In this document: positions 4,206-40,774 of the stretch, one piece after another | How the letters are laid out: every line of letters starts with the position of its first letter | Numbering within the stretch: the stretch's first letter is position 1 | From: an uncultured candidatus Brocadiaceae bacterium | Lineage (GTDB): Bacteria; Planctomycetota; Brocadiia; SM23-32 | Assembly (NCBI GenBank): GCA_964644705.1 | Contig: CAZXYF010000001.1 | Location: forward strand, 1 to 45,869 | Length of the DNA: 45,869 nt | Direction of reading: 5' to 3' | The notes under the pieces: generated by a model | Databases searched by the model: none | The model's input: only the letters and a program-made list of their open reading frames with translations | What the model was told of the DNA's origin: nothing | Program-made: the position numbers and the translations under genes

Positions 4206-4416
4206 ATGGCGCCGGTGTTTGAGCTTCGGGTGAGAAGCATTGTCCGGGGAGAGATGCATCCTTGCGCCCCGAATTTCCGTAAGCGGCAAGCAGGGGGAAT
4301 ACAGTCCGTTCACGTGGTCGTTACCATGCGCTCCAGGGGGACAGATTTGGCACTGGCCTTATACAACAGCTAAGTCATGTCTGTCCAAAACAGCGAATTG
4401 GCGGGAGGGATTCGGT

Positions 4417-6486
4417 TTATTGATCGTCCGCCGGGACTTCATCGGTTTCGGACTGCCGTTCTGTTTGTTCCGGAGTCTGCTCAGCTGTTTCCTCCTCCTC
4501 CTCCGGTTTCTCGTCTTTTTCCCCCTCTTCCTCTCCGTCTTCCAGAAGTGCGCGGTGGTGTTCCACTTCGATACCATACGGTTCGAGGATGTTTCTGAGC
4601 TCATCCTCTTCAAGCACCTCTTTTTCGGTCAGTGCTTCCGCAACGGCGTCAAGTGCTTCACGATGTTCGGACAGCAGGGAATATGCTCGGTCATGCGCCT
4701 GGCAGACAATTTCTTTGACCGCCTGATCCATTTTGCGATTGGTTTCTTCGCTCCACGGTTTCCCCAGGAATGCCTGTTGCCCATCCTGATCGCCGCGGTC
4801 TCGTGGGTAGCTTACAGGGCCGATATCTTCGCTCATCCCGTAATCCTGCACCATTTGGCGGGCCATATCGGTGGCCTTGGCCAGATCGTCGGAGGCGCCG
4901 GTTGAGATCTCATCGAAAACGACTTCCTCGGCGCACCGCCCACCCAGCATGACGGCGAGGCGGTCGATGAGCTCGTGTTTACGCAGCAGATATCGATCTT
5001 CCTGCGGCATCTGCATTGTGAAGCCCAGCCCTGCGACGCCCCGGGCCACCATACTCACTTTACGTACTGGATCTGCGCCGGGAACGAGAGAGGCAATCAG
5101 GGCATGTCCGGTTTCATGGTGCGCAACAATCTCTTTCTCCTCGTCGTTCATGAGGCGATTGCTGCGTTCCAATCCCGCCACGACCCGTTCTATCGAATCC
5201 TGCAGCTCCCGGGTCTCAACGGCGTCTTTATCCCGACGCGCCGCCAGCAAAGCCGCTTCATTCACGAGATTGGCCAGGTCGGAGCCGACAAAGCCAGATG
5301 TCATGGCAGCGATCTTATGCAGGTCCACCTCGTCGGCCAGCTTTACCTCTTTGGTGTGAAGTTTGAGGATCTCCTCCCGTCCCTTCAGGTCGGGTCGTGG
5401 AACGCTTATTTGTCGATCAAAACGGCCTGCACGAAGCAGGGCGGGGTCCAGCATTCCCGGCCGGTTGGTTGCTCCAAGGAGGATGATACCTTTTGTCGGT
5501 TCGAAGCCGTCCATTTGTACCAGCAGGGCATTGAGGGTTTGTTCACGTTCTTCATGTCCGCCCATCATCCCGCCGCCCCTGGCTTTTCCGAGTGCATCGA
5601 GTTCATCGATGAAGATGATGCAGGGCGCCTGTTGGTCGGCTTGTTTGAACAGATCGCGCACTCGTGCGGCCCCCACACCAACGAACATCTCGACGAAGTC
5701 AGATCCGCTGAGGCTGAAGAAGGGAACGTCGGCCTCACCGGCCACGGCTCGCGCCAGCAGGGTTTTTCCGGTTCCAGGTTCTCCGACAAGAAGAACCCCT
5801 TTGGGGATGCTGCCACCCAGCCGCGTGAACTTTTTGGGGTTTTGCAAAAATTCCACGACCTCCTGGAGCTCTTCTTTACATTCCTCAATTCCCGCAACGT
5901 CGTCAAAAGTGGCGTCCCCCTCTTTTTTGACGAACATTTTGGCCTGCGACTGAGCAAAGTTCATCATGCCACCGGCATTGCTCATCCGTGAAAATAAAAA
6001 CCTCCACAGCAGGAAAATACCAACGATGGGGAGTATCCAGAAGAAGATCAGAGTCTGCCACTGATCCGAATCCTCCCGGTATTGTACGTCCGCATCGTCC
6101 AACAATTTATAAATCTGATCATCTTTATGTGACCATACGGTATGGAACTTAATGGTGGAGGCTTTACTGACCTGGACTTTGCGACTTTGTGTTGTCGTTA
6201 CCTTGACCGGCGTACCGTCGGGTCGATGTTGCTTCAATACGCCATAGATCTCATCAGGTTTCAGGACACATTTTTGGACGCTGCTGTTTTTAACGAGCCG
6301 CCTGAATTCGCCGTAGCCAATCTGCAGGCGATCCTCTCGTGTGGCCGCCCAATAAATAACGGCGACCAGAAGTGCACCCAGGAGGATATACCAGAACGGG
6401 AACGACTTTTGCTGCTGATCCTGCGGAGGGGGCTCGTTGGGGCCGCCCGGAGTGTTTGGGCCACCGCCTCGGGGATTTGGAGACAT
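4417..6486 (-). CDS. ftsH: ATP-dependent zinc metalloprotease FtsH
   Basis: 689-aa ORF with Walker A GEPGTGKT, Walker B IIFIDELD and zinc motif HETGHAL. Two N-terminal TM segments. Pro/Gly-rich N-terminus and a strongly acidic C-terminal tail. Confidence 0.97.
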
Positions 6487-6692
6487 CGGATATGGTTCCT
6501 TTCAGCTAAGCTCTATCAAAGTAGAAGTTTACTGCTGGCAGGTTGGTGCGTTTTACGCTTCCCCCGCGCCGTGAAATCAAAATCGTCTCGTGCCGGATAC
6601 CGGCGACATAGTTCCGGAAGCGGGATCGCAATATTTTGCCAGAGCGGGAAACAAACAGGGGAGGAATAATTGCATCATCCTGACCTGCATAC

Positions 6693-6721
6693 ATTATACA
6701 TGCACGTGCCCGGCTGACCAA
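6693..6721 (-). promoter_or_regulatory. sigma70-type promoter for ftsH (TTGGTC-N17-TATAAT on the minus strand)
   Basis: The reverse complement reads TTGGTC (6721-6716), a 17-nt spacer, then TATAAT (6698-6693). It lies about 200 nt upstream of the ftsH start. Confidence 0.4.
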
Positions 6722-6783
6722 TCGAGAGCGCCTGTGGTATAAGATTTGTCACGAATCAGGTCCTTGCAAAGGCGTTTTCCGGG

Positions 6784-6811
6784 TTGACAGATCCGGACGC
6801 GTGGGTATTCT
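6784..6811 (+). promoter_or_regulatory. sigma70-type promoter (TTGACA-N16-TATTCT)
   Basis: TTGACA at 6784-6789, a 16-nt spacer, then TATTCT at 6806-6811, upstream of the CDS at 6869. Confidence 0.4.
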
Positions 6812-6868
6812 GAAAATAGTAATGATGCATGTATTATTACTTTTCTTCTGTTATGGGAGAGTGGTCTT

Positions 6869-7561
6869 ATGCGTTATCGTTTCACTCTGGTGGAGTTGTT
6901 AGTTGTAATCTCTATTATATCTATTCTCGCTGCAATGTTGATGCCCGCCCTGCAGGGCGCGCGCAAGAGAGCCTACCAGGCCAGTTGCCAAAGCAACGTT
7001 CGGCAGGTGGGTATTGGTATGACCTCTTACCGTACTGATCACAATCAGAATTGGCCATCGGGCAGTACATCCGGAGATTGGGACGTGCAGAGTCAGGAGG
7101 CTCTGAACGAAATCAGCTCCGATTACGTGAACAGTGGAGAAGTATTTAATTGTCCGGCAAAAAGCCGTGGTGATGCCGTGGGAAGTAGTGATAATCTGCA
7201 GACGGATAACATCGACTACGTCTACGGTACCAATGGCTCGAACCTCGCCCAGATGAGCGTGATTTACGCCGATGCCGTTGGGGGGAGTAACTACAATGAC
7301 GGAACCACGCCGCTAGACGGCAGCGGCAATCTTGACTGGAGTCTCGTCACCAATGGGAACGCGAGGCAATACATCAACCACGTGACCGGGGCGAACGCTT
7401 TGTTCGTCGATACCCATGTTGAATATCTGACGGTCGTGGATGATGGATCCGGTGATCCGGCGGGGGTCAGTAACGCTGACCTGATTGCCAGTGACACCGA
7501 TATCTACACGGTGAACCCCGGAGCTAATTCACTGGATGACGCCCGTCTGGAAACCAACTAA
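6869..7561 (+). CDS. prepilin-type N-terminal cleavage/methylation domain protein (H-X9-DG-like family)
   Basis: The N-terminus RFTLVELLVVISIISILAAMLMPAL is the type IV pilin-like leader and hydrophobic helix. The C-terminal HVTGANALFVDTHVEYL resembles the H-X9-DG signature, with DT in place of DG. Confidence 0.85.
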   Translation: MRYRFTLVELLVVISIISILAAMLMPALQGARKRAYQASCQSNVRQVGIGMTSYRTDHNQNWPSGSTSGDWDVQSQEALNEISSDYVNSGEVFNCPAKSRGDAVGSSDNLQTDNIDYVYGTNGSNLAQMSVIYADAVGGSNYNDGTTPLDGSGNLDWSLVTNGNARQYINHVTGANALFVDTHVEYLTVVDDGSGDPAGVSNADLIASDTDIYTVNPGANSLDDARLETN

Positions 7562-7583
7562 TTAGATTCCTCGCGCAGTAACC

Positions 7584-14012: not shown

Positions 14013-14601
14013 CAGGACAACACAGCATAGGAATTGGGTTGTGTTGCGTTGTGCCGCCGGTCTTGATCCCCCGTCATGTAAAAGACTGATTGTGTCCTTT
14101 CACAATCCGCTTCTTGCAATCGTAGTTTTTTGCATGGCACCACGCGTGTGAGAATGGCTCAATCCATTTTGACGTTTGAGATCTCTCGTATTATTTACTG
14201 TTGAAGCTCCGAGAATTATATGCCGGGCCTTCAACCCTGTGGAATTGTTTCAGAGCCAACGGCCGGGCATATATTTGCCCAGACAGCACTGGCCTGCAGG
14301 TCCACGGAGGTCTGGATTGCGGGTTAGTAACAAAGAGGTGGAGGGTCGAAAGCCCAGCATATACTGGTACGTATGGCGGGCCTAACAGCCTAAAATGCCT
14401 CTGTTAAAATATGTTCGGCGGCGCGGGCAAAGAGCCATGTATTTCAAATCGCTGTTTTGGGTAGGCCTGGATTGGCCGCTTATGGCTCCGCGTGTTGTCG
14501 GGCATATTTGGAAAAGTTGCCGTTGAATCGGTAATTTCGCAGATATCCGCCCGCGGCGATGTCGGAATGATTGGGATCTTCCCCGTGGAAACCCCTGGAC
14601 T

Positions 14602-16517: not shown

Positions 16518-17810
16518 TCACACTTCGAGTGGCTGGCCGCTCACCACTTTTTCGCGGTAATCTTCGGGAAGCGCGATCAAACCAAAATCGTCGGTCAGCA
16601 ACCGATCTTTGAAATCGGTAACGTCGATCTGCTGCCGGGCCAGCCCGGTGATAATACCCGCCCGGTCGATGTCACCGATGAATATCGCACCCACGATACG
16701 GTTATCGCGCAGTACAATTTTGCGGTAGATCGGTTTTTCAGTATCCATGTCCGTCATGATTTCGTAGTTTTCGGGATCGTCCGGCGCCGTGACTCCGATG
16801 CTTATTGTGGGGAGTCCGAACACATCCACGGAATTCATAGCCAGCCCGCCTTCGTACTCCCGGGATCCGTCCGCCATATTCATTCCCGCAATCAGACCCT
16901 GGCGGTAGGCGTTGGGCAGGATGGGAATGGCGCGTTTTTCACCGGAGAACAGTTCCCGCGCCTGGGCGACGTCCCCGGCGGCATATACGTCATCAAGTGA
17001 ACTCTCCATGCGGTCATCCACGATGATTCCGCGATCAACTTCAGCCTCAGTTCCCTCCAGAAGATCCGTGTTGGGCAGAACGCCGATGGCGAAAATCACC
17101 AGAGAACAGGGGACATCCGTTCCGCACCGGAGGGTGGCTCCGTCCACTTTCCCGTTTTTCTGATTGATGCTCTGGACGGTTGTTGAACACCGAACGTCAA
17201 CCCCGGCGGCCTCCATTGCCTCCTGTGCCATCTCCGAAGCGGTTTCATCAAAGGTGGAGTTCAGCACCTGATCTGCCAGCTCCACCAGCGTCGTGTGGAT
17301 GTCCCTGTTGACCAGGGCTTCCATTGACTTCAGCCCGATGAGACCGCCGCCGACAACCACGGCGTTTTCCACCCCTTCAGCTTCGATGAACTCCTCAATC
17401 TCGTTCGCGTCTTCCCAGGTGGTGAAGGTGAAGACGCCATTTGCATCCATTCCTTCCACTTTCGGCGGAAGAATCGGGCTTCCACCGGTGGCAACGAGCA
17501 GATTTTCATACGCCAGTTCTTCACCGGTGTCGGTTCCCACGATTTTTCTGTCCGAATCCACATCCTCGGCGGTGACACCCAGAAGGGGGGTGACGTTGTT
17601 TTTTTTATAAAAATTCTCGGGGCGATACATCATCTGTTCCTCGTCCACTTCCCCGGCGAGCAGGTAGGAAATGAGCGGACGAGAGTAGGTGTGGTGGGGT
17701 TCCCGTGCCACGACGGTGATGGGGCGGTCGGGGTCGTTGCGTCGTATTCCCTCCACCGCCCCCATGGCGGCGGCGGAATTACCGATGATAAGGTATGGAA
17801 TGCGGTTCAT
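16518..17810 (-). CDS. FAD/NAD(P)-dependent pyridine nucleotide-disulfide-family oxidoreductase
   Basis: 430-aa ORF with an N-terminal FAD fold (YLIIGNSAAAMGAVEG), a second dinucleotide fold (AVVVGGGLIGLKSMEA) and the AAGDVA motif. There is no obvious redox-active Cys pair. Confidence 0.88.
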   Translation of the reverse strand: MNRIPYLIIGNSAAAMGAVEGIRRNDPDRPITVVAREPHHTYSRPLISYLLAGEVDEEQMMYRPENFYKKNNVTPLLGVTAEDVDSDRKIVGTDTGEELAYENLLVATGGSPILPPKVEGMDANGVFTFTTWEDANEIEEFIEAEGVENAVVVGGGLIGLKSMEALVNRDIHTTLVELADQVLNSTFDETASEMAQEAMEAAGVDVRCSTTVQSINQKNGKVDGATLRCGTDVPCSLVIFAIGVLPNTDLLEGTEAEVDRGIIVDDRMESSLDDVYAAGDVAQARELFSGEKRAIPILPNAYRQGLIAGMNMADGSREYEGGLAMNSVDVFGLPTISIGVTAPDDPENYEIMTDMDTEKPIYRKIVLRDNRIVGAIFIGDIDRAGIITGLARQQIDVTDFKDRLLTDDFGLIALPEDYREKVVSGQPLEV

Positions 17811-17867
17811 TGTTCTCCTCGCAATCTTTGATGTTTTGATTGATTGACCGTTTTGGTTGGGGCGTCG

Positions 17868-18326
17868 TTATTCATCGGATGCCTCCTCATCGATTTCCTC
17901 CAGAACAATCGCCTTATTCGGGCAGTTCGCGACGCAGGCCGGGAATTCCTCGTCGATGCACAGGTCACACTTTGAGGCGGCCGTATCGTCGTTGCCGCGA
18001 TGAATGGCGCCTGCGGGGCAGACCATGATGCACATCCAGCATCCGACGCATTTGTCCTCATCGTTCAGCACGGCGCCGGTTTCGGGGTCGCGATGCATGG
18101 CCCCGGTCATGCAGGCTTCAATGCATGGGGCGTCCTTGCAGTGGCGGCACTGAAGCGCGAACGAGACATACCCGGATTCCTCCACCTGAACGCGGGGCGA
18201 GAGGTCCTCCTTTTCCTCCCGGAATGCTTTGATGATATGTTTGGATTCAGAGTGCTGGACCTGGCAGTGAATCTCACAGAGTTTGCATCCGATACAGTAT
18301 TTTTCTCTGGCCACAATCTTTTTCAT
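17868..18326 (-). CDS. multi-cluster 4Fe-4S ferredoxin-domain protein
   Basis: 152-aa ORF with four Cys groups: CIGCKLCEIHC, CRHCKDAPCIEAC, CVGCWMCIMVC and CDLC..C...C. Confidence 0.9.
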   Translation of the reverse strand: MKKIVAREKYCIGCKLCEIHCQVQHSESKHIIKAFREEKEDLSPRVQVEESGYVSFALQCRHCKDAPCIEACMTGAMHRDPETGAVLNDEDKCVGCWMCIMVCPAGAIHRGNDDTAASKCDLCIDEEFPACVANCPNKAIVLEEIDEEASDE

Positions 18327-18355
18327 TGTGTCGTCCTCTATTGAAAATTTATGTT

Positions 18356-19939
18356 TTACTCACCGGCGGCCTTCACATCGAAAATCGACAGTTCCCGGTC
18401 GGTCAGTCCGACACCCCGGAGGTGTTCGCGGTTTCCGCGCAGACTCTCGATGGAGTTGATACCCATGCCGCCCATCATTTCCTTGATTTCAAGCGACCAA
18501 CCGCGCAGCAGGTTGGTCAGACGTCGGACGGCGATGTCGGGGTTGAGGCGGCGCGTAAGATCGGGATCCTGCGTCGCGATACCCCAGTTACACTTGCCGG
18601 TGTAGCATTTCTGGCACATGTGACAGCCCATCGATACGAGTGCGGCGGTACCGATGTAAACGGCGTCGGCGCCCAGTGCGATGGCCTTGACCACATCGGC
18701 GCTGCAGCGGATTCCGCCGCCGGCGACCACGCTGGCCTGATTGCGGATACCTTCCTCGCGCAGGCGGGAATCGACGGCCGCCAGGGCAAATTCGGTGGGC
18801 ATGCCCACATTGTTTCGGATCATCGTGGGCGCGGCACCCGTTCCGCCGCGGTAACCGTCTATCGCCACAATATCGGCTCCTGCCCGAACGCATCCGCTGG
18901 CGATCGGTGCCACATTGTGCACGGCGGATATCTTGACCGAGACGGGCTTTTCGTAGCGCGTGGCTTCCTTGATAGCGTAGATTAGCTGCCGCAAATCCTC
19001 GATGGAATAGATATCGTGGTGTGGAGCGGGAGACAGGGCGTCGGTTCCTTCGGGGATCATCCGCGTCTGGGAAACCTCGGCGTCCACCTTTTCACCGGGC
19101 AGATGCCCACCGATACCCGGTTTGGCTCCCTGCCCGATTTTGATCTCCACGGCCGACGCCGAATTGAGGTATTCAGGATCGACTCCGAAACGTCCGGACG
19201 CCACCTGCACGATCATATTGTCGCCGTAAGGGCGTATGTCCTTATGCAGGCCACCTTCGCCACTGTTGGCGAATGTGCCACTATCTCTGGCCGCCCGGGC
19301 CAGGGCAATCGAGGCGTTGTAGCTGATGGATCCGTAGCTCATGGCGCTGAACATGATGGGGGTTTCGAGTTTCAGCTGTGGGGGAACCTCGGTTTTCAGC
19401 TCGGTTTCGCCGTCGCCGTTTTGCTCCAGCTCCACAGCGTTTGGCTTGCGGCCAAGATACGTCGTCAGTTCCATCGGCTCGCGCAGGGGATCGATCGAGG
19501 GGTTGGTGACCTGGCTCGCGTTGAGGATCAGTTTCTCCCAGTAAATGGTATCCTCCGAGTCGTTCCCCATACCCGAGAGCAGGACGCCGCCGGTTTCCGC
19601 CTGTTTGTACACGTTGCGCAGGGCGTCGGAGTCCCAGTTGCCATTGGGTCGGAACTCCCGTTCGCTCTTCTTGATATCAATGGCGTCGGTGGGGCAGAGG
19701 GTGGCACACCGATGGCATCCCACGCAGGAGGCGTTCTCGCTCTGCATCTGATCTGTGTCCGCGTCATACTCATGCACTTCGTTGCTGCACTGCTGGGCAC
19801 AGACCTCACACTGGATGCAGCGTTCCGGATCGCGTTCGATGCGGAAATCCGGGTCGATTAGCCATTGTTTGGGGTTGGGTATTTGACAGCGGGTATTCTG
19901 GCCGTCGTCAGGTGTTTGTTGGTTTTGTTGGTCTGTCAT
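18356..19939 (-). CDS. glutamate synthase FMN-binding domain protein with N-terminal 2x[4Fe-4S] ferredoxin domain (GltB domain 2-like)
   Basis: 527-aa ORF. The N-terminus carries CIQCEVCAQQC and CVGCHRCATLCP. The TIM-barrel region carries KIGQGAKPGIGGHLPG and GGTGAAP, plus the 3Fe-4S/4Fe-4S-type Cys cluster CHMCQKCYTGKC. Confidence 0.92.
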   Translation of the reverse strand: MTDQQNQQTPDDGQNTRCQIPNPKQWLIDPDFRIERDPERCIQCEVCAQQCSNEVHEYDADTDQMQSENASCVGCHRCATLCPTDAIDIKKSEREFRPNGNWDSDALRNVYKQAETGGVLLSGMGNDSEDTIYWEKLILNASQVTNPSIDPLREPMELTTYLGRKPNAVELEQNGDGETELKTEVPPQLKLETPIMFSAMSYGSISYNASIALARAARDSGTFANSGEGGLHKDIRPYGDNMIVQVASGRFGVDPEYLNSASAVEIKIGQGAKPGIGGHLPGEKVDAEVSQTRMIPEGTDALSPAPHHDIYSIEDLRQLIYAIKEATRYEKPVSVKISAVHNVAPIASGCVRAGADIVAIDGYRGGTGAAPTMIRNNVGMPTEFALAAVDSRLREEGIRNQASVVAGGGIRCSADVVKAIALGADAVYIGTAALVSMGCHMCQKCYTGKCNWGIATQDPDLTRRLNPDIAVRRLTNLLRGWSLEIKEMMGGMGINSIESLRGNREHLRGVGLTDRELSIFDVKAAGE

Positions 19940-19975
19940 TGCTTTACCTCTTTTCGGAAGGGTAATGGAAGCATA

Positions 19976-21088
19976 TCAGGCGCATTCATCGGTCGCGGAA
20001 TCCGTCGTCTGGAGCCGGCCGATGACCGGCTCCCCGCCCGCCGGTCGCCAGAGTTGGTCGGGGGACTGACAGATGGTACGGATGGCTGATTCTTCACTGG
20101 CCACATACAGCTTATCCGCTTTTCGTGCAGCCACCATGGGGCGCAGCTTGATCCGATCATTGAACCCGATCATGCCTCCGCTGTGACCGACAAGCACGGA
20201 GAAGGGGCCGTTGAGCAGAGCGCCACCGTAAACCGTGCGAATTGTGCGCGCCAGTTCTGCCTCATCGTCCGGCATCCGATCGATCTGTTCCCAGAATGGA
20301 GGCGCCAGGGCGGTGCAGGCATGCTCCACCGGCAGGCCGTGTTTTCGGATCAGCAGGTCAAACATGTAGGTGATGACTTCCGTATCGGTGTGGAACGCGC
20401 AGTGATAACCGAAGTTGTCGAGGTATCTTCTGTTGATGCCGTAGGAGGAGATTTCGCCGTTGTGGACGACCGACCAATCCAGCAGCCCAAACGGATGCGC
20501 GCCGCCCCACCATCCGGTGGTGTTTGTGGGGAACCGGCCGTGCGCCGTCCAGATGTAGGCCTCGTATTCATCCAGCCGGAAAAACTCCCCGATCTCCTCA
20601 GGGTAACCCAGGCCTTTGAACACACCCATGTTTTTCCCGCTGGAGAACACGAAAGTCCCGTCGATGGTCGTGTTGAGTTCCATCACCAGGTCCACCATCA
20701 CATCTTTCTCCGTTTTATCGTACTTCCGGGTCAACTCCTCTTCCCGCAGGTCCAGAAAATAGCGGTGGAGGAGGGGACGCTGCTTGATGGCATCCAGTTG
20801 CCGGATGGGGATCGGTTCCTGATGCCGGACCTCACATCGGTCGGCCAGAAATTCTTCAGCCTTTTGCTTGCTGGCATCATCGTCGAACATGATGTGCAGG
20901 GCATAACTGTCTCTGTGTTCGGGATATATTCCGTATGCCGCGAACCCACCACCCAGTCCGTTGGCGCGTTCGTGCATATTGGCGATGGAGCGGATGATCA
21001 GTTCGCCGCTGAGTAGCTCACCGCTCTCGGACATGAGGCCGCTGATGGAGCAACCGCTGATATCTTTATGGGGCAGGGGATTCTGCAT
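19976..21088 (-). CDS. class II (Ntn-type) glutamine amidotransferase domain protein (GltB domain 1-like)
   Basis: 370-aa ORF. The catalytic-type Cys sits in the context ISGCSISGL at residue 13. RANGLGGGFA and HGRFPTNT are typical of GATase-2 domains. Confidence 0.88.
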   Translation of the reverse strand: MQNPLPHKDISGCSISGLMSESGELLSGELIIRSIANMHERANGLGGGFAAYGIYPEHRDSYALHIMFDDDASKQKAEEFLADRCEVRHQEPIPIRQLDAIKQRPLLHRYFLDLREEELTRKYDKTEKDVMVDLVMELNTTIDGTFVFSSGKNMGVFKGLGYPEEIGEFFRLDEYEAYIWTAHGRFPTNTTGWWGGAHPFGLLDWSVVHNGEISSYGINRRYLDNFGYHCAFHTDTEVITYMFDLLIRKHGLPVEHACTALAPPFWEQIDRMPDDEAELARTIRTVYGGALLNGPFSVLVGHSGGMIGFNDRIKLRPMVAARKADKLYVASEESAIRTICQSPDQLWRPAGGEPVIGRLQTTDSATDECA

Positions 21089-21343
21089 TATTATTCCTCC
21101 TGGCTGTTGGTGAGTGTGGTCAACTCTTTTCTCAATTCTGGAGCCCCATCCACTTTCCGGGGTGCCAGCACTGAGAAAAAAGTGGCCATCAGAAGCTATT
21201 CTCAGAGATAGATCAGGCGAGGACGGTCCGTGCTCCGCCCTCGCCCGTACCCAGCAGCCGAATGCCGGGTGTAAACGACTATCTGGTGTTGGATCAGCCC
21301 GATATCACGGTTATCGGGGCAACACCGCTACTTTTTGTGTTGA

Positions 21344-21376
21344 GTTGGGCGTGCACCGGGTGGTCACACGCCCAAC
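21344..21376 (-). terminator. GC-rich hairpin after glnA (possible weak terminator or processing site)
   Basis: Perfect 10-bp stem GTTGGGCGTG/CACGCCCAAC beginning 12 nt after the glnA stop. No U-tract follows on the minus strand. Confidence 0.3.
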
Positions 21377-21387
21377 GCCAACATCAG

Positions 21388-22725
21388 TTAGAGGATTGAC
21401 AGGTAATTGTCGAGCTCATAGTTGCTCACGTGGGTGCGGTACCCATCCCATTCGATCTTTTTGTTCTCGATGAACTTCTCGAAAACGTGGTCACCCAGCG
21501 CCTCGCGGACCAGTTCGCTGTCCTCGGTCGCTTCGATGGCCTCGCCGAGGTTTCCGGGCAGGGCTGTAATACCATGTTCCGCTCGCTCCTCCTCGGACAT
21601 CTCAAAGATGTCGGACTCGACCGGATCACAGAGTTCATATCCCTCTTCCACGCCTTTGAGGCCGGCCGCAAGCATCACGGCGAAAGCCAGATAAGGATTG
21701 CACGCGGGATCGGGACAGCGCACTTCCATGCGAGTTGCCTTCTCGTTGCCCGGTTTGTACATCGGCACTCGGACCAGGGCGGACCGATTCCGCCGCGCCC
21801 ACGACACATACACCGGTGCTTCGTAGCCGGGTACCAGACGCTTGTAGGAGTTAACCCACTGGGCGATGACCGAGCAGATCTCACGGGAATGTTTAAGAAT
21901 ACCGGCGATGTAGGAGCGCGCCAGATCCGACAGATGATAGGGCGCATCGGCATCAAAAAACGCGTTCCGGTCGCCTTCAAACAGGGACATGTGGGTGTGC
22001 ATGCCGCTGCCGTTTTCCCCGAATATGGGCTTGGGCATGAAGGTGGCATAAGCGTCGTGGGACATGGCAATTTCTTTGACCGTCAGCCGGTATGTCATGG
22101 CGTAATCGGCCATTTTGAGCGCCTCAGCATAACGAAGATCAATTTCATGCTGGCTGGGCGCAACCTCGTGATGGCTGTATTCCACCGGAATGTCCATCTG
22201 TTCCAGAGTGAGAATGGTATCACGACGGAGGTCACTGGCCACGTCCAACGGCGTCAGGTCGAAATAGCCGCCGGCATCGAGCTCCTGGGTGGACTCATCG
22301 TCCTCGAAGTAGAAAAATTCGAGTTCCGGGCCCACGAACAGGTCGTATCCCATGTCCTTTGCTTTTTGGAGATTGCGTTTGAGCACGTAGCGAGGATCCC
22401 CCTCATAGGGAGTGCCATCCGGTTTAAGGATGTCGCAGAACATCCGGCCGACGGCTCCACCCTCGGTGGGGCGCCATGGCAGAATGGTGAATGTTGATGG
22501 ATCGGGCATAGCGATCATGTCGCTTTCTTCGATCCGCGCATATCCCTCGATGGATGAACCGTCGAAGCCCATTCCATCCTCGAGAGCGCCTTCGAGTTCA
22601 TCGGCCGTAATCGCGAAGCTTTTCAGCGATCCCAGCACATCGGTGAACCAGAACCGGATAAACTTCACATCCTCCTCCATCACTTTCCGCAAAACGTCTT
22701 CTTTGTCCATATCGCAGTTGGACAT
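21388..22725 (-). CDS. glnA: glutamine synthetase type I (alpha-like, no adenylylation-loop motif seen)
   Basis: The ORF track opens at 22833. I prefer the ATG at 22723-22725 (MSNCDMDKEDVLRK...), which follows GGGAG. Motifs FDGSSIEG and KPIFGENGSGMHTHMSLF are present. Length is about 445 aa. Confidence 0.95.
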   Translation of the reverse strand: MSNCDMDKEDVLRKVMEEDVKFIRFWFTDVLGSLKSFAITADELEGALEDGMGFDGSSIEGYARIEESDMIAMPDPSTFTILPWRPTEGGAVGRMFCDILKPDGTPYEGDPRYVLKRNLQKAKDMGYDLFVGPELEFFYFEDDESTQELDAGGYFDLTPLDVASDLRRDTILTLEQMDIPVEYSHHEVAPSQHEIDLRYAEALKMADYAMTYRLTVKEIAMSHDAYATFMPKPIFGENGSGMHTHMSLFEGDRNAFFDADAPYHLSDLARSYIAGILKHSREICSVIAQWVNSYKRLVPGYEAPVYVSWARRNRSALVRVPMYKPGNEKATRMEVRCPDPACNPYLAFAVMLAAGLKGVEEGYELCDPVESDIFEMSEEERAEHGITALPGNLGEAIEATEDSELVREALGDHVFEKFIENKKIEWDGYRTHVSNYELDNYLSIL

Positions 22726-22821
22726 TGTCGTGACTCCCAACACAAAGTAAAAACTATAACCGTGCGAACCAGAGATTTTCTGTCGGTGGCCGGCGCGCAC
22801 CGGCCGTTCACCCAAACATTG

Positions 22822-22837
22822 CGCAACTACCATGCCA
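22822..22837 (-). promoter_or_regulatory. sigma54 (-24/-12) promoter of glnA
   Basis: The minus strand reads TGGCATG-GTAG-TTGCG, against the consensus TGGCACG-N4-TTGCW. The GG and GC are correctly spaced. It lies about 85-100 nt upstream of the glnA ATG. Confidence 0.75.
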
Positions 22838-32610: not shown

Positions 32611-34167
32611 TCACTTTTTCGCCACTGTGGGGGATCGAAACAACTGGGGATCCATCCCGAGCTGTTTTATGTTATATCGGATTTGTCGTGGGGAGATTCC
32701 ACGCTGACGGGCCGCTGCCGCCCTGTTCCTATCGGAGCGTTTCAACGCCTCCCTTATCATGTCCCGCGCCAGGGCTTCAACCTGAGTTTCCAGAGCGCCG
32801 GTGTCCGTGCCACCGCCGTCCTCCGGCAGCTGCAATGTGGGCGGGAGATGATGGGCATGTATTGCTTCGTCGGTGCTGAGCAGAACTGCTCGTTCAATAC
32901 AGTTCTCCAGTTCCCTTACGTTACCGGGCCAGTGATAGGCCATCATGGCATTGATGGCCTGGGTGGTAATGCGACTTATGTTTTTGCCCATCCGGTCTGA
33001 AAATCTATCCGCAAAATGATCGGCCAGCAGCAGGATATCTTCCCGTCGGTCCCGTAGGGGAGGCAGATAAATGGGTAAAACATTTATTCGGTAGTATAGA
33101 TCCTCCCGAAAATCTCCCCTTTCCACGGCTTTTTCCAGATCACAATTGGTTGCCGTTATTATGCGAACATCCGCGTGTTTTGTTTCGTTGCTACCGACCG
33201 GTTCGTACTCTCGTTCCTGGAGAATTCTGAGTAGTTTGACCTGTATGGTGGGCGAGAAATCGCCAATTTCATCCAGAAACAGGGTTCCGCCATCGGCCTG
33301 TTCTATGCGACCGCGTCGTTGAGATGTGGCGCCGGTGAAAGCTCCTTTTTCATGTCCGAACAGCTCGCTTTCGATGAGGTTTTCCGAGAGGGCGGCACAG
33401 TTCACCGTCACCATTGGATTGCTGCTCCGCGCGCTCTGATAGTGAATCGCCGAAGCGACCAGTTCCTTTCCCGTACCGGATTCGCCCCGGATGAGAACGG
33501 TGGTGTCGGAAGGGGCCACCTGTTGGATCAAACGGTAAACCTCCTGCATCGGATCAGAATTCCCGATGATGTTTTCCGGGCGCAGTTGTTCGCCCAGTTT
33601 ATTTCTCAGACGCAGGTTTTCGGCTTCATAAGATCGTTTTTGAAGGGCGGCGTCCCGGCGAGCGCGTACGTCCCCGCCGACCATGTTTGCCACGATGTCT
33701 AAGATGCGTTGTTGTTCTTCCAGCTCGTCGCGTGAGGTGCATGGGACGTCGACTGACAGAGTGCCCGTGACTTCATTGTTGAGGACAATAGGGACGCACA
33801 GAAAACTGAGCTGTTCTCCTGCGCTTTCCCGCCTTTTATGGATTCGGTTGCAGAATCGAGGCTCATCGGAGATGCGTGGTATTACTTCGGCTTCACCCGT
33901 TTCCATGACGCGTCCCACAATTCCTTCGCCTTTTTTATACCGGACGCTTTTTTGGTCTGATGACTGAATATTGGGAGCTGCTTCCACCACCAGATCCTTT
34001 TTGGACGGGGACACGAGCATGATAGTTCCCCGGTGCATATCGAGTTTTTCCCGGAGCGTTTTCAATACCTGTTCCAGCATCTGCCGTTGGCCGCTGTGCC
34101 GGTGCAGTATCCGCGTTATTTTTTTCAAACCGTCAAAAATATGAGCGTATCGGCTGTTGTCGGACAT
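32611..34167 (-). CDS. sigma54-dependent transcriptional activator with N-terminal GAF-like domain (NifA-type architecture, no receiver domain)
   Basis: ATG at 34165-34167 follows GGAGGA. AAA+ motifs [23 protein letters not shown] and [10 protein letters not shown]-terminal Fis-type HTH ([17 protein letters not shown]). The ~170-aa N-terminal sensor region is GAF-like. Confidence 0.9.
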
Positions 34168-34702
34168 ATGGTTCCTCCGCACTGGACCACGGTATCGGTA
34201 GTGAAATCGACTGTTAACAGTACATAACGCAAATGAGATACCGTCTAAAAAGCTGTGCAGTTGCGGCTGGATCAGTACCAGTATCATTTTTTACCTCACG
34301 GCGGGGCTTACCAAAATCTTTACCTTCGTCTTTATCAAACATCTGCCGTTGTTTTCTGGAGACCTCAGCCCGAACAGAAAGGCAGACGAAGGCAAGAACA
34401 AAGAGAGTTGTCCATGTCAAATCGCTGTTTTGGAGGGACCTGACCGCACGGGCTCCCAGCTTGTGGCACTGTTCTCTTTCATGTATGGTCTTAAATGCGC
34501 CTTAAACAGATGTCTCAGCCTCATCGGATGTTTTTGGGCGGACGAATATGGGTACAATCCAAAGGTGCTGCAGAAGACACACGAATAGTAAGATACGGAT
34601 GGGGGAATGTGTTTACTTTTCAGGCAGTGCATCATTTATGACCGCTCGAGGGCGGATACGCTTTTAGAAACAATCATTTAGTTTTTGTGATGGAGTTGCG
34701 TG

Positions 34703-35376: not shown

Positions 35377-35718
35377 TCATCCAATCGCTTCAGATCCGGT
35401 TTCTCCTGTCCGTATTCGGACGCAATCCGCAAGATCGAGGACGAAGATCTTTCCGTCGCCAATCTCACCGGTTCGGGCACCCGCGACAATGGCATCGATG
35501 GTGGGATCCAGATAGTTGTCATTGACCGCTATCTCAAGGCGGACCTTTTTGAGCAGGTTCACCTCCGTGACCACCCCGCGGTAGGCCTCGGTGTAGCCCT
35601 TTTGCTGGCCACAGCCCTTCGCGGTAGTTACGGACATTTTGTGTACGTCCGAATCGAACAGCGACGCTTTGACGTCGTTTAGTTTTTCCGGCTGTATGTA
35701 GGCGATAATGAGTTTCAT
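35377..35718 (-). CDS. glnK: P-II nitrogen regulatory protein (amtB-linked GlnK type)
   Basis: 113 aa with [13 protein letters not shown]..., T-loop [17 protein letters not shown] and C-terminal [13 protein letters not shown]-loop position 51 is Thr, not Tyr. Confidence 0.93.
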
Positions 35719-35843: not shown

Positions 35844-37205
35844 TTACTCGGTGGTGAATATCTGAAAGCCGGCGTAGGCCTCCATGCCGTGTTCGCCGAT
35901 GTCCAGGCCACGCAACTCTTCGTCGCGGGAAACCCGCAGGCCGATCGTGGCCTTGATGGCGAGGAACATCACCGTGCCGGTCACCACGACCCAGCCCATT
36001 ACGCTGAGCACGCCGATGGCCTGTATGCCAAGCAGCTCGAAGCCGCCACCGTAGAACAGGCCCGCCACATCGCCCATACCCGCCGAACTGGCGTAAGCCG
36101 GACTGGCGAACAGCCCAACGCACAGGGTGCCCAGGGCGCCGCAAATGCCGTGGACGGAGACCGCACCGACGGGATCATCGATGTGTAGGGTTTGGTCGAT
36201 GAAAAGCACCGAGAGAACAACGACGATACCGGACAGCAAGCCGATGATGATCGCCCCGCCGGGGGAAACTACAGAGCAACCCGCTGTGATCCCGACCAGG
36301 CCGGCCAGGCCACCGTTGAGCGCCATACTGGCGTCCGGCTTACCCTCCACACCCCAGATCGTAAACATAGCGCTGATAGCGCCGGCGGCAGCCGCCAGGT
36401 TTGTGGTGACGGCAATGGTACCAATGGCGAGATTGGTGCCGCTGGTGGTACTGCCCGCGTTGAAACCGAACCACCCGAACCACAATATAAATACTCCGAG
36501 CGCGGCCAGTGGAATGTTGTGACCGGGCAGGGCTCTGGAGGTGGTTTCGTTGCCGTGTTGCGAGTATTTGCCCTCTCTCGGGCCCAACACTATTGCGCCA
36601 ACCAGGGCCGCCCAGCCGCCCACACTGTGGACAACGGTGGAACCGGCAAAATCAACCATTCCGAGCTCCGCCAGAAAACCTCCGCCCCAGATCCAGTGCC
36701 CGACGACCGGATAGATAACCGCCGAGAGGACAACGCTGTAGGCGAGGTAGCCGACGAACTTCGTGCGCTCGGCCATCGCACCGCTCACGATTGTTGCGGC
36801 GGTGGCGGCGAAGACCACCTGGAACATCCAGAAGGCGATCTGCCACAGACCCTCGGTTGTGGCCGGATCACCGACGGAGAGAAAAAAACCATCGGTGCCG
36901 AACAGTCCCATGCTGTCCGCGCCAAACATAATCCCGAAACCAACGGCCCAGTAGGCGATGGATCCGACGGAAAAGTCCATCAGGTTCTTCATGATGATGT
37001 TGCAGGCGTTCTTGGCGCGGGTGAAGCCAGCCTCGACCATGGCAAAGCCGGGCTGCATGAAAAAGACCATGAATGCCGCCACAAGCATCCAGACGGTGTC
37101 AATAGCATGAGCGTTTTCGCCACCCGTGGGTTCACCCGCCAGGGCCGTACCACCGACGCCTGACAGCAATAACAAAGCCAGCAATATGCGCGTTTTCGTG
37201 TTCAT
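35844..37205 (-). CDS. amtB: ammonium transporter (Amt family)
   Basis: 453 aa. Signal peptide followed by 11 TM segments. Amt motifs are present (DFAGSTVVHSVGGWAAL, FGWFGFNAGS, VHGICGALGTL). AAGGAG precedes the ATG. Confidence 0.95.
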   Translation of the reverse strand: MNTKTRILLALLLLSGVGGTALAGEPTGGENAHAIDTVWMLVAAFMVFFMQPGFAMVEAGFTRAKNACNIIMKNLMDFSVGSIAYWAVGFGIMFGADSMGLFGTDGFFLSVGDPATTEGLWQIAFWMFQVVFAATAATIVSGAMAERTKFVGYLAYSVVLSAVIYPVVGHWIWGGGFLAELGMVDFAGSTVVHSVGGWAALVGAIVLGPREGKYSQHGNETTSRALPGHNIPLAALGVFILWFGWFGFNAGSTTSGTNLAIGTIAVTTNLAAAAGAISAMFTIWGVEGKPDASMALNGGLAGLVGITAGCSVVSPGGAIIIGLLSGIVVVLSVLFIDQTLHIDDPVGAVSVHGICGALGTLCVGLFASPAYASSAGMGDVAGLFYGGGFELLGIQAIGVLSVMGWVVVTGTVMFLAIKATIGLRVSRDEELRGLDIGEHGMEAYAGFQIFTTE

Positions 37206-37300: not shown

Positions 37301-38098
37301 TCAGAAGGCCCAGGAAATCGTTATTCCCGCCCACAGGTTGTCGTCATCGGACATGTTGTCTCTGATGTCCTCGTCCAGCAAACTGGAGTAGTTGACGGCC
37401 GGGGTGAGAGAAACATTTTCGCCCAGAGAGACGGGAAACGAGAGACTCAGCAGCGCATCGGTGAGCGCGCCGGAATCCTCACCATAGTAGTAGTCGTTGT
37501 AGTGGGAAGTCCCGTAGGCCACGGAACCATCCACTGCCGCGGATACGCTGACCCCCCTGGCGGGTGTCCAAATGTCCTCCAGAGAGTGTCCCGCTGAGAG
37601 GGAGATGTAGGAGCCATCCGCCTCATCGACATCCTGATAAACCGTGATGCCAGGGGACAGGGGCAGGTCCAGAGTGGCCCCGGCGTAGAGTTCAGTGGTC
37701 GATGGAGCGCTGCTGTGGGGGAATGTGTAGTAAATGGCGCCGACGCTGAGATCCACAGTATCCCACGTCCAGGAGTAGTCCAGAGTTAGATCATATTCGG
37801 TGAAATCGCCGGATTGTCCGTTGGCGTCGTCCAGGTCCATGTTGCCCCAGACGTTGAATGAAAGCCCGTCGTATCCTATTGTGGCGGACGGCTGAAACAC
37901 GTCCCCATCCACGGTGTTGATCCCGCGCCAGACGTATTTGCCGTTGTAGGTCAGATCGAGCTCAAACCAGAGCTCCGGCGTTTCGGGTTCCGGGACTGGC
38001 TCATTTCCTGCAGATTCCGCTGCGTGCAGGATTCCTGCGGTTACTGCTGTCAGCATTACACAGACTACTACCCACCTGATCGACTTCCTCCAAAACAT
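37301..38098 (-). CDS. outer-membrane beta-barrel protein (TorF/Gcw_chp-like putative porin)
   Basis: Signal peptide. YNGKYVWRGINTVDGDVFQPS resembles the TorF-family N-terminal motif. Alternating beta-strand pattern with C-terminal ...ITISWAF. AGGAGG precedes the ATG. Confidence 0.8.
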   Translation of the reverse strand: MFWRKSIRWVVVCVMLTAVTAGILHAAESAGNEPVPEPETPELWFELDLTYNGKYVWRGINTVDGDVFQPSATIGYDGLSFNVWGNMDLDDANGQSGDFTEYDLTLDYSWTWDTVDLSVGAIYYTFPHSSAPSTTELYAGATLDLPLSPGITVYQDVDEADGSYISLSAGHSLEDIWTPARGVSVSAAVDGSVAYGTSHYNDYYYGEDSGALTDALLSLSFPVSLGENVSLTPAVNYSSLLDEDIRDNMSDDDNLWAGITISWAF

Positions 38099-38169: not shown

Positions 38170-38185
38170 TGCATATGGCGTGCCA
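38170..38185 (-). promoter_or_regulatory. sigma54 (-24/-12) promoter of the porin-amtB-glnK operon
   Basis: The minus strand reads TGGCACG-CCAT-ATGCA. The GG and GC are correctly spaced. It lies about 60-85 nt upstream of the ATG at 38098. Confidence 0.75.
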
Positions 38186-38285: not shown

Positions 38286-38330
38286 CCTACATTATTGTGG
38301 TTCGCATTCTGGCACCTACATTTTTGTAGG
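38286..38330. promoter_or_regulatory. two related palindromic boxes (candidate enhancer sites for the amtB-operon sigma54 promoter)
   Basis: CCTACATTATTGTGG at 38286-38300 and CCTACATTTTTGTAGG at 38315-38330. The shared core is an ACA-N4-TGT dyad. The boxes are 29 nt apart and lie roughly 100-145 bp upstream of the -24/-12 element. They are not NtrC-like. Confidence 0.4.
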
Positions 38331-38388
38331 ATCCAAAGCGGTTTTGTGTAAGTTTTCCATGTCGGATCTTGCTGTATCGTATAGTGAG

Positions 38389-38563
38389 AATCCCCCGCGC
38401 TTGCCACGGGGATCCTTAGGTTTCAACCTACCAACCCAGGATGAAAACCCAATAAATCCCCCGCGCTTGTCGCGGGGATCCTTAGGTTTCAACCTACACA
38501 GAAGGCCGAACAATCAAGTAAATCCGCCGGGCTTGCTTCGGCGGTTGTTAGGTTTTTTGCTCT
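38389..38563. repeat. three tandem 43-nt hairpin-containing units at exact 66-nt period (candidate modular ncRNA; strand unresolved)
   Basis: Units start at 38389, 38455 and 38521. Units 1 and 2 match at 41 of 43 positions (AATCCCCCGCGCTTGYCRCGGGGATCCTTAGGTTTCAACCTAC). Unit 3 matches unit 2 at 28 of 43 positions, yet keeps the hairpin through paired changes, keeps the CTTGY loop and keeps TTAGGTTT. It ends in a T6 run. The spacers are 23 nt and unrelated to each other. Confidence 0.8.
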
Positions 38564-38681
38564 TCTGACTCCCAAAAACGTTAGAACATTTTTGCAAGAG
38601 CGTTTAGTTTGGGAGGGGCGGGCGTCATGGGGTAGGGAGGAGACAGTATGATGTTATGATGGCATCTTGAAGATTCGGATC

Positions 38682-38718
38682 AAAAAAAAAGACACTCCTG
38701 CGGGGTAACAGGAGTGTC
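38682..38718 (-). terminator. rho-independent terminator of the sensor kinase gene
   Basis: The minus strand reads GACACTCCTG-TTACCCCG-CAGGAGTGTC followed by T9. It starts 32 nt after the stop at 38750. Confidence 0.85.
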
Positions 38719-38749
38719 CGATCAGTGATGATTGGCAGCGTGTCTTATT

Positions 38750-40774
38750 TTACGACGTGTCTGGTGACGCTCTACCCGGCTGGCTGTTTTCCACCGGCAG
38801 GGTGACAATAAATGTTGTCCCTTTACCCGGTGTGCTCTCGGCGGTTATTTCACCGTTATGTCTGTTCACAATTTTCTGGCACAGGGCCAGACCGATGCCC
38901 GTACCTTTGTACTCCCCCCGTGGGTAGAGGCGCTGGAAAATTGTGAAGATACGATCCAGGTATTGTTCATCGAAGCCAATGCCGTTGTCGCTCACCGTGA
39001 GACGACAGAAGGTTCGCTCATCTTGCATTTCTTCTGTAGCGTCAATTTCAACGACAGGGGGGACACCTTCTCTGTGAAACTTCAGTGCGTTCGAGATCAG
39101 GTTCTGCAGAAGTTGTCTCATCTGCGTGGCGTCGGCCTCGATCTCCGGCAGCCCACCGATTTCTACCGTTCCGTCAACATCTTCGATTTGCATTTCCAGA
39201 TCGGACACCACTTCCCGGGCGACGGATTCGAGGTCGGTTTCTTCAAACTCTTTTCCGCGGGTGGTAATGCGCGAGAGGGTAAGGAGGTCATTGATGAGCT
39301 GTTTCATCCGCGCTGCGGCATCAGTTATGCGTTCAAGGTATTCTCGCTCCCGTCCTTCAAATTTATCCAGGCACTTCTCTTCTATTCGCTCACCGAATGC
39401 CATAATCTTACGGACGGGCTCCTGGAGGTCGTGGGAGGCCACGTAGGCGAAATGCTCAAGTTCCTGGTTTGACTGTTCGAGTTCGCTCAAGGTTTCCTTG
39501 AGCTGTTTTTCAGTGCGTTTGCGGCGTTCAATCTCCCGATCCAATTCGTCTCGCGACGCGGTCACATTCTGGAGATTTCGCGCCATTTCCTGGACATCCC
39601 GGGATAGGGCGCCGATTTCGTCACCACTGTCTGTGGCAATCTGACAGGTGAAATCGCCCGCTCCAACTCGTTCAACACATCGACGCAACCGGCTCACACG
39701 TCGTCCAAGTGAGCGGGCCATCAACATGCCTATGCCCAGCCCGACGACGACAAAACCGCCGAATATCATCCATATTTTCTGAACCAGCTGATCAACAGGA
39801 GCATAGATCACATCCGTAGATTGTTGAAGCAAAAGAACCCACCCCATACCGGGAAAATTCCGGTATCCTTCCGAAACCGCGTGCGTGCACAGCAGGTTTT
39901 CCCCGGTCTTCGATTCAATGGTGTAAGCGCCGTTTGAAGCAATATTATCGGGAGAAGCAGGAAGCAGACGGGAAGGGGGACGCCGCCCGGTCGTTATTTT
40001 GCTCTTCCTGGAACTGTAAATCACCCTGTTGTTGCTACTGAGCAGATACAGATTGCCCAGATCTTTTTCCTTTTCCCGGGCTTTCTGGTCCAGCTCGCTT
40101 ATAACTCGAACAACTTCTTTCAAACTGACCACGGCCTTGGTTACTCCCATGAACTTCCCGGTTTCCGGGTCGAGTACGCTGACAGCAACCGTGACGCTGT
40201 CCATGTTCGCGCTTCGATCAAATTCGACAGAACTGACATAAACACCGTTCTCACGGGTGCGCTGCCACCACTGTTCGTCGGCCTGGGCAAAATCTGAAGG
40301 TCTTCCAGAAGCCCCCACAAGGGCCCCGAATTTATTGGTGATAAAAATTTCTCCCAGCACGGGATAATCATACTCCCGATTCAAATGCGCGCTGAATTGC
40401 TGAAGCTTCATGCTAATGTCCGATGAAAGCACTTCTTTGACCGGCCGCGGTTGGGGGGGCTCAGTTCGGTCAATCCACAACTTATCCTGTTGTTGGATAT
40501 AGTTCGCACTGTCATCCATTCTGGAATACCGATTATTCGATGCCTCGAGTGCCTTGCGAACCGATTTCATCCCGCTCAAAAGGCGAAATTGTTCCATGCG
40601 GCCGTGGAGATGACGGTCCAGCTTGTTCATCACCTCGCCCACCAGCAACATGTTGGTGGATCTGACGCTACGCCTCATGGCTCGCCGACTTTCATCCGCT
40701 GCGAAGTAGGCCAGCACCAGTATGGTACAGGCCACAACAAAAACGGCCAGGGCTAATTTCGTAAAAATTTTCAC
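38750..40774 (-). CDS. sensor histidine kinase (large extracytoplasmic domain, HAMP, coiled coil, HisKA, HATPase_c)
   Basis: GTG start. Two TM segments flank a ~300-aa external domain. H-box FAYVASHDLQEPVRKI. ATPase boxes NLISNALKF, DNGIGF and GTGIGLALC. No adjacent response regulator. Confidence 0.92.
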   Translation of the reverse strand: MKIFTKLALAVFVVACTILVLAYFAADESRRAMRRSVRSTNMLLVGEVMNKLDRHLHGRMEQFRLLSGMKSVRKALEASNNRYSRMDDSANYIQQQDKLWIDRTEPPQPRPVKEVLSSDISMKLQQFSAHLNREYDYPVLGEIFITNKFGALVGASGRPSDFAQADEQWWQRTRENGVYVSSVEFDRSANMDSVTVAVSVLDPETGKFMGVTKAVVSLKEVVRVISELDQKAREKEKDLGNLYLLSSNNRVIYSSRKSKITTGRRPPSRLLPASPDNIASNGAYTIESKTGENLLCTHAVSEGYRNFPGMGWVLLLQQSTDVIYAPVDQLVQKIWMIFGGFVVVGLGIGMLMARSLGRRVSRLRRCVERVGAGDFTCQIATDSGDEIGALSRDVQEMARNLQNVTASRDELDREIERRKRTEKQLKETLSELEQSNQELEHFAYVASHDLQEPVRKIMAFGERIEEKCLDKFEGREREYLERITDAAARMKQLINDLLTLSRITTRGKEFEETDLESVAREVVSDLEMQIEDVDGTVEIGGLPEIEADATQMRQLLQNLISNALKFHREGVPPVVEIDATEEMQDERTFCRLTVSDNGIGFDEQYLDRIFTIFQRLYPRGEYKGTGIGLALCQKIVNRHNGEITAESTPGKGTTFIVTLPVENSQPGRASPDTS

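Follow-up and report, generated by a model that had tools for sequence, protein, structure and literature searches.

To our knowledge, almost nothing is known about the noncoding RNAs and repeat elements of Planctomycetota and Verrucomicrobiota, and our literature search turned up no description, from either group, of an element like the one reported here. Among the closest described systems are the pneumococcal BOX elements, which have a boxA-boxB(n)-boxC architecture with a 45-nt module, are dispersed between genes, and are predicted to form stable hairpins. REP sequences are short, G+C-rich intergenic stem-loops tagged with GTAG/CGTC and dispersed in several copies per genome, as single units, as dimers, or in clusters whose spacers have a typical length; often they are transcribed and resemble terminators, their distribution across the phylogeny is patchy and includes reports from PVC bacteria, and they are associated with RAYT genes, with head-to-head or tail-to-tail dimers predominating and head-to-tail dimers rare (Di Nocera et al. 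2013, PMC3733652). The Pseudomonas RNA NrsZ is built of one to six similar tandem stem-loop modules, with a spacer length that is constant within a species and varies between species; it is encoded at a single syntenic locus downstream of ntrC, has a consensus sigma54 promoter, and carries a ACAGGCAG motif in a large loop (PMC4253122).

Here, we analyzed a tandem array of three hairpin units in a 45.9-kb window, by which we mean the whole stretch of 45,869 nucleotides of Brocadiaceae DNA. A sequence-only reading had described the units beside the sigma54-controlled amtB operon and likened them to NrsZ. We find that the array belongs to a structured, modular, and dispersed family that spans at least two PVC phyla, conserves its pairing while varying in module number, is absent from syntenic amtB loci, and has no tie to amtB. 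The array and its surroundings comprise the following features.

32611-34287, minus strand: gene of a GAF sigma54 activator
35377-35718, minus strand: glnK
35844-37205, minus strand: amtB
37301-38098, minus strand: porin gene, encoding a 265-aa outer-membrane protein whose homologues carry Pfam Gcw_chp
38170-38185, minus strand: sigma54 promoter of porin-amtB-glnK, TGGCACGCCATATGCA, one mismatch to consensus
38286-38300 and 38315-38330, no strand assigned: two enhancer-like palindromes, CCTACA-N4-TGTRG, upstream of the porin gene
38336-38388, plus strand: leader of ~52 nt that travels with unit 1 to a metagenome contig (L021)
38389-38431, plus strand: unit 1, A-type module; hairpin 38390-38413, tail ATCCTTAGGTTTCAACCTAC
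38432-38454, plus strand: linker 1, 23 nt, A/C-rich, unpaired in the predicted family consensus
38455-38497, plus strand: unit 2, A-type module; hairpin 38456-38479, tail as in unit 1
38498-38520, plus strand: linker 2, also 23 nt, with no sequence relation to linker 1
38521-38563, plus strand: unit 3, B-type terminal module; hairpin 38522-38545, tail TTGTTAGG, T6 run
about 38681-38719, minus strand: intrinsic terminator of the kinase gene, a 12-bp stem followed by a T9 run
38750-40774, minus strand: dCache-HAMP histidine kinase gene, to the right of the array

As the sequence-only reading had stated, the units start at 38389, 38455, and 38521, with a period of exactly 66 nt. TRF recovers this period across 38389-38536 (score, 189), and a repeat search of the window returns three 43-nt copies with identities of 100%, 95%, and 67% and a spacing of 66 + 66. 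A 19-base degenerate pattern from the three units matches only these three sites in the 45.9 kb (chance expectation, 0.01), and a covariance model of the unit (R1) scores units 1, 2, and 3 at 58.6, 62.5, and 55.9 bits. The cores of units 1 and 2 are nearly identical, with mismatches at 2 of 43 positions versus 14 of 23 in the linkers (Fisher p = 9e-7), and linkers 1 and 2 align no better than 22% of shuffles, so that their earlier description as unrelated spacers is correct. The loop CTTGY, the downstream TTAGGTTT, and the T6 run of unit 3 are likewise all present as described, the first two in every unit, including unit 3. The hairpin of unit 1 has the loop CTTGC and one C-A mismatch, that of unit 2 the loop CTTGT on a 7-bp stem without mismatch, and that of unit 3 two G-U pairs. 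The T6 run (38553-38558) begins 8 nt past the unit 3 stem and was not called a plus-strand terminator; a terminator-like call was made on the minus strand at unit 2, and in every unit the tail is of the AUUU type when read on the minus strand and contains U when read on the plus strand. Within the leader, a -10-like TATAGT (38380-38385) ends 3 nt 5' of the AATCC motif; the -35 region is poor, and a promoter scan called no sigma70-type promoter in the leader.

The named homologues of the ArgC encoded in the window all come from Planctomycetota or Candidatus Brocadiia. The array locus was also found in the metagenome-assembled genomes (MAGs) GCA_905333755.1 and GCA_905333615.1 (L008 for the latter). 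L008 is the same as the window to the left of ~38517, apart from a 2-nt indel near the porin start, and is ~10% divergent to the right of it (compared over ~38517-38612), a pattern suggesting that recombination has joined two stretches between units 2 and 3. Just 3' of unit 3, we noted by eye an inverted repeat, CTCCCAAA...TTTGGGAG, at 38569-38614 on the plus strand; strain L008 is divergent there, and its contig ends within the repeat.

Unit 3 has diverged from the other units at about one-third of its positions (67% identity), with stem pairing kept, as had been claimed: C:G becomes G:C at columns 9/25, C:G becomes G-U at 13/21, G:C becomes G-U at 14/20, and a new C:G pair appears at the stem foot. 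L008 has G-C in place of a unit 3 G-U pair, and L021 has a C-G pair in place of the unit 1 C-A mismatch. Over 15 distinct family units, 94% of stem cells are paired, compensatory double changes occur at 4 of 9 stem pairs (11 cells), and none of 500 shuffles reached the covariation score; in a control in which the pairing partner was slid by 1 to 3 columns, pairing fell to 36 to 64%. The covariation supports the proposal, already made from the three units, that the hairpins are under selection for pairing. RNAalifold, applied to dimers, predicted only two hairpins, with tail and linker unpaired. By folding energy, the minus-strand hairpins are equally or slightly more stable (mean, 1.4 kcal/mol), and stable folding on both strands fits a DNA-level or bidirectional element. 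T-runs after the terminal modules of the window, L008, and a Brocadiia contig (L001), together with a terminator in a second metagenome contig (L022), favor the plus strand. No Rfam family matched the array at gathering score, and matches at E values up to 10 were at chance level only (E, 3 to 10).

The kinase terminator, confirmed at 38690-38719, and the sigma54 promoter on either side of the array are as the sequence-only reading had placed them, but the DNA between them is not "empty," given that the ~52-nt leader (38336-38388) travels with unit 1. We retrieved syntenic porin-amtB-glnK loci via porin homologues. In two of these, L014 and L015 (porin identities of 75% and 74%), the sigma54 promoter and the two palindromes are retained, so that the palindromes probably serve as the enhancer at which the nearby GAF-domain activator acts. 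Past the second palindrome, their sequence is unrelated to the window and the neighboring gene is a different one, and covariance model R1 found no unit in L014 to L020, among them the syntenic loci L014 to L018 and L020. On the plus strand, the best sigma54 site (38310-38325, TGGCACCTACATTTTT) carries TTTT where the -12 element should read TTGC and thus lacks the -12 GC; its TGGCAC at 38310, the only one on the plus strand, shares positions with an enhancer palindrome belonging to the divergent operon. Sigma54 matches with two mismatches number 26 in the window, versus 22.9 expected by chance, and the window scan gave no credible plus-strand sigma54 promoter for the array. Complementarity between the linkers and the translation-initiation regions of 34 window genes, including porin, amtB, and glnK, was no better than that of shuffles. 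Of the analogy to NrsZ, then, the modular layout with a near-constant period stands, but the sigma54/nitrogen link is not supported: the array has no plus-strand promoter of this type, and syntenic loci lack the units. Since units are dispersed in unrelated intergenic regions elsewhere, the position of the array next to the sigma54-dependent porin-amtB-glnK operon looks incidental.

Other features of the window concern its nitrogen genes and intergenic gaps. A cluster of glutamine synthetase and split, archaeal-type glutamate synthase genes lies at 16518-22833 on the minus strand, 15 kb from amtB; in the relatives L016 to L020, glnA is directly 3' of glnK, an adjacency which indicates that nitrogen-assimilation genes have been rearranged in the lineage of the window. 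Another short motif, AATYGSTGTTTTGGRSRGRCMTG, occurs in four intergenic gaps (138-166, 14441-14469, and 34414-34442 on the plus strand and 4376-4401 on the minus strand), and a 55-nt inverted pair with 78% identity (68-122 with 34319-34373) links the start of the window to sequence lying 5' of the sigma54 activator gene. No cas, transposase, or HUH/Y1 gene was found in the 45.9-kb window.

Our genome and metagenome scans required an exact match at the 19 specified bases and therefore missed diverged family members; the source species was itself unmatched in the scan of species-representative genomes. That scan returned four contigs of one Candidatus Moanabacter (Verrucomicrobiota) MAG (CBDCEW01) and one contig of a Brocadiia MAG (JBKHIT01), and all true matches have AATCC in common, although it lies outside the search pattern. 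A Roizmanbacteria match (L004) is probably due to chance, as are two matches without AATCC in the metagenome scan. Scanning viral sequences with the pattern gave no matches, and neither did blastn against plasmids and phages.

The four Moanabacter contigs hold at least nine units; the 45.9-kb window holds one cluster only. On L003, model R1 identifies two convergent head-to-tail dimers in one intergenic region, with periods of 67 and 68 nt, and a TACAAT precedes the first hairpin at the distance of the window TATAGT; no -10-like box is present before L003 A', L002, L006, or L022. Moanabacter contigs L002 and L006 share a 132-nt composite of 94% identity with sharp edges and unrelated flanks, and Moanabacter linkers are conserved between dispersed loci. 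The Brocadiia contig (L001) carries a lone module 86 nt past a gene stop, between convergent genes, with a T7 run and a stem-loop nearly identical to that of unit 3. In Moanabacter contig L005, as in the window, no co-oriented gene precedes the modules. The genes next to family copies are unrelated (acetolactate synthase/beta-lactamase-like, IS + DruA-like/sulfatase, GH38, Sel1, and IS), and those of the Moanabacter modules have no relation to nitrogen metabolism.

The two metagenome copies came from searches with the spurious translation of the array. A protein-database search led to L021, where the match takes in the ~52-nt leader together with unit 1 and linker 1 and extends 9 nt into unit 2 before the sequences diverge; by blastn, 103 nt align at 91% identity. 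The window leader aligns to L021 640-705, where the 28 nt ahead of the final three leader bases are 100% identical; the L021 linker is roughly 75 to 80% identical to linker 1 (by eye), with a 1-nt indel, so that leader and core are better conserved with the window than the linker is. This copy sits between an ORF of unknown kind and a sulfatase gene, and the leader is preceded by a terminator-like hairpin that belongs to the gene upstream. An exhaustive HMMER search gave one further true array (P0200, on L022) and two chance repeat proteins that we rejected, one of them (P0201) from a 110-Mb eukaryotic scaffold. The L022 array is a 69-nt × 2.4 repeat of 96% identity with linkers identical between units, followed by a canonical plus-strand terminator (hairpin + T8) and adjoined by an IS transposase gene. 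Copies in L021 and L022 are truncated or mosaic, and modules adjoin other repeat families and IS genes.

Aligned dimers from the two phyla share, from 5' to 3', hairpin A, T(T/G)AGG(T/A)T, CTAC 12 nt further on, an A/C-rich linker, AATCC, hairpin B, and T(T/C)AGGTTT. Loops in the family are CTTGC, CTTGT, or CTCGC, 4 to 5 nt in length, and conservation is asymmetric, extending ~20 nt beyond the 3' side of each hairpin. Copies dispersed in unrelated intergenic regions (Moanabacter, L021, L022, and L001), and homologous amtB loci without the element, partly undercut the functional RNA that the sequence-only reading had proposed for this site.

Several further observations concern the DNA around the family copies. 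Sulfatase genes lie 3' of copies at three loci (L005 4363-5898; L003, reverse-complement, 5699-7186; L021 1059-1268), which may be a chance association, given that sulfatase genes abound in PVC genomes; a sulfatase-maturing FGE protein is also encoded in the window, at 2912-3895. Moanabacter also has a second, unrelated repeat family of ~85 to 180 nt in both orientations that sometimes abuts modules (L002 731-913 and 5828-5932; L003, reverse-complement, 4907-5089 and 7184-7216; L005 4150-4234), and L003 contains a ~100-nt tandem repeat at 7244-7570. Directly after a Sel1-repeat gene on L022 (3834-3924, minus strand), two CCGCCGGG-CTCG-CCCCGGCGG hairpins stand 69 nt apart; they have a family-like stem and period without the AATCC and TTAGG flanks and may be a diverged subfamily.

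Like REP and BIME elements, the modules are short, G+C-rich intergenic stem-loops, dispersed as single copies, dimers, or clusters. However, the stem is flanked by AATCC and GATC rather than GTAG/CGTC, an invariant CTAC, which reads GTAG on the opposite strand, is set 17 nt away from the hairpin on its 3' side, the 3' tail is conserved over ~20 nt, arrays run head to tail, copy number is low so far, and the 45.9-kb window has no RAYT gene (Y1/HUH). We therefore rejected assignment to canonical REPs because of the missing stem-foot tag and the head-to-tail order. BOX offers a likeness in that one module is reiterated head to tail in variable number between distinct first and last modules, but the sequences are unrelated, the phylum is another, and the module here is 66 to 69 nt long and present two or three times per array. 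With NrsZ, the family has in common tandem modules of near-constant period (66 nt in the window, 67 to 68 nt in Moanabacter, and 69 nt in L022). Its loops, in contrast, are of 4 to 5 nt (CUUGY), without ACAGGCAG in a large loop, and its loci are dispersed and nonsyntenic, while the array in the window has no consensus RpoN promoter (TGGCAC-N5-TTGCW) immediately 5' of it on the plus strand; we rejected membership in NrsZ on all three counts, the promoter, the loop motif, and synteny.

The reading that we tentatively put foremost, at somewhat less than even confidence, is that the units form one local cluster, arranged head to tail, of a new, low-copy, REP/BOX-like family of dispersed stem-loops in PVC bacteria. 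A module consists of an AATCC 5' flank, a G+C-rich stem of 7 to 9 bp that drifts via compensatory change, a CTTGY loop, and a 3' tail of GAT-N-TTAGGTT, followed in nonterminal modules by ...CTAC and the A/C-rich linker. The modules lie in unrelated intergenic regions, in either orientation relative to neighboring genes, and stand alone or are repeated head to tail two or three times with a period of 66 to 69 nt. They may have spread and been homogenized as REP, BIME, or BOX-type repeats are, by an enzyme or by recombination, with arrays growing by unequal exchange between modules. Once transcribed, they could form stable RNA hairpins, and a terminal module with its T-run might act as a terminator or 3'-end stabilizer. 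This reading is favored by the sharp-edged dispersal, the mosaic and truncated copies, the occurrence in both orientations, lone modules after genes, IS neighbors, absence at syntenic loci, and folding on both strands. Against it stand the single cluster and the lack of a transposase gene in the 45.9-kb window, and the lack of a GTAG/CGTC tag at the stem foot and of head-to-head or tail-to-tail dimers; by eye, moreover, we saw no target-site duplication. Cores that are 95% identical next to unrelated linkers, together with the same contrast in L021, point to selection or conversion on function and not to neutral selfish DNA. In two contexts that lack a plus-strand gene, plus-strand terminator signals follow the array (T6 in the window and a canonical terminator in L022), which favors a discrete transcript.

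That last point leads to the possibility, plausible but in our judgment not probable, that the array is a multicopy modular small RNA (sRNA) with its own plus-strand transcription. An RNA of ~170 nt would start a few bases past TATAGT (38380-38385), at the foot of hairpin 1, pass through the two A modules, and end at the T-run of the B module; each hairpin with its single-stranded UUAGGUU...CUAC would be a repeated binding or processing module, serving as a protein sponge or for NrsZ-like cutting, and paralogous genes would exist elsewhere in the genome. The TATAGT leader is kept with unit 1 in L021, behind the terminator-like hairpin of the upstream gene, and the TACAAT of L003 lies at the matching distance; arrays located among minus-strand genes only still end in plus-strand terminator signals (T6 here; hairpin + T8 in L022). 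The consensus fold of two hairpins around an unpaired, motif-bearing segment is a usual sRNA layout, the CUUG loop and tail are conserved as stems covary, cores and linkers differ sharply in conservation (p = 9e-7), and module number varies as in NrsZ (PMC4253122). These points must be set against the uncalled promoter and poor -35 region, the missing -10-like box before L003 A', L002, L006, and L022, hairpins that are no more stable on the plus strand, a unit 3 T-run 8 nt past the stem without a terminator call, linkers without target complementarity among the 34 window translation-initiation regions, and syntenic loci of close relatives without the element; lone and truncated modules, both orientations, sharp-edged copies of 94% identity, and IS neighbors are, moreover, the behavior of a repeat. 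The wider proposal, of a new sRNA family common to Planctomycetota and Verrucomicrobiota, with one to three CUUG-loop hairpins, UUAGGUU...CUAC platforms, its own promoter, and several paralogues per genome acting as sponges or processed units for a conserved RNA-binding protein, is slightly less likely. The repeat-element and sRNA-gene readings are not mutually exclusive and can both hold.

Other readings attribute the array to its position or to its repetition. A stack of bidirectional terminator or insulator hairpins, stopping read-through from the kinase gene into the porin-amtB-glnK enhancer and sigma54 promoter, would account for the terminator-like minus-strand call at unit 2, the AUUU-type and U-containing tails on the two strands, good folding on both, and the L001 module 86 nt past a stop between convergent genes. 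Yet the kinase gene already has a strong terminator (12-bp stem, T9), termination needs no conserved loop, tail, or CTAC motif, relatives have the same operon without the stack, and the modules of L005 and the window lie behind no co-oriented gene, all of which makes this reading improbable. It is more improbable again that the units are phased palindromic sites for a DNA-binding regulator, adding upstream sites to the amtB enhancer region; palindromic units 66 bp apart upstream of the enhancer palindromes would suit such a role, but stem bases vary in compensatory fashion instead of being fixed, conservation is asymmetric with ~20 nt on the 3' side, modules lie beside unrelated genes in other genomes, and syntenic loci lack them. 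A degenerate mini-CRISPR array, which the sequence-only reading had raised, has in its favor hairpin direct repeats with a regular period, equal-length unrelated linkers, and a degenerate last repeat. CRISPR spacers are about 26 nt or more, however, and the 23-nt linkers fall below this usual length; linkers are also conserved between Moanabacter loci and identical between L022 units, the 19-base pattern has no viral match, lone modules and convergent dimers occur in the family, and the window has no cas gene, so that we rejected this reading as scarcely credible. A terminator after the array recalls ToxI-like type III antitoxins as well, but no toxin ORF lies downstream, there being no plus-strand ORF between 38563 and the convergent kinase gene, and this candidate was rejected. 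Equally hard to credit is a repeat microprotein from the 69-codon ORF at 38359-38568 (MSDLAVSYSENPPRLPRGSLGFNL...), the other alternative raised earlier. The frame is indeed open through all three units, and L021 has the ATG and first 24 codons too, with a single substitution, but in L021 the linker has a 1-nt indel that puts unit 2 out of frame, the 67- to 68-nt periods of Moanabacter break it, and stop codons interrupt it. Substitutions instead track pairing (CCA to CCG restores a C-G pair), the translation has no Pfam match, and the Shine-Dalgarno sequence is poor by eye; we rejected the coding reading on the basis of the L021 frameshift and the Moanabacter periods and stop codons.

For the window, these results remove a tempting but unsupported sigma54/nitrogen link to amtB. 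For Planctomycetota and Verrucomicrobiota, the compensatory hairpin, the single-stranded motifs common to two phyla, and the variable module number make the family a concrete starting point for studying what would be either a new multicopy regulatory RNA or mobile stem-loop repeats of a new class.
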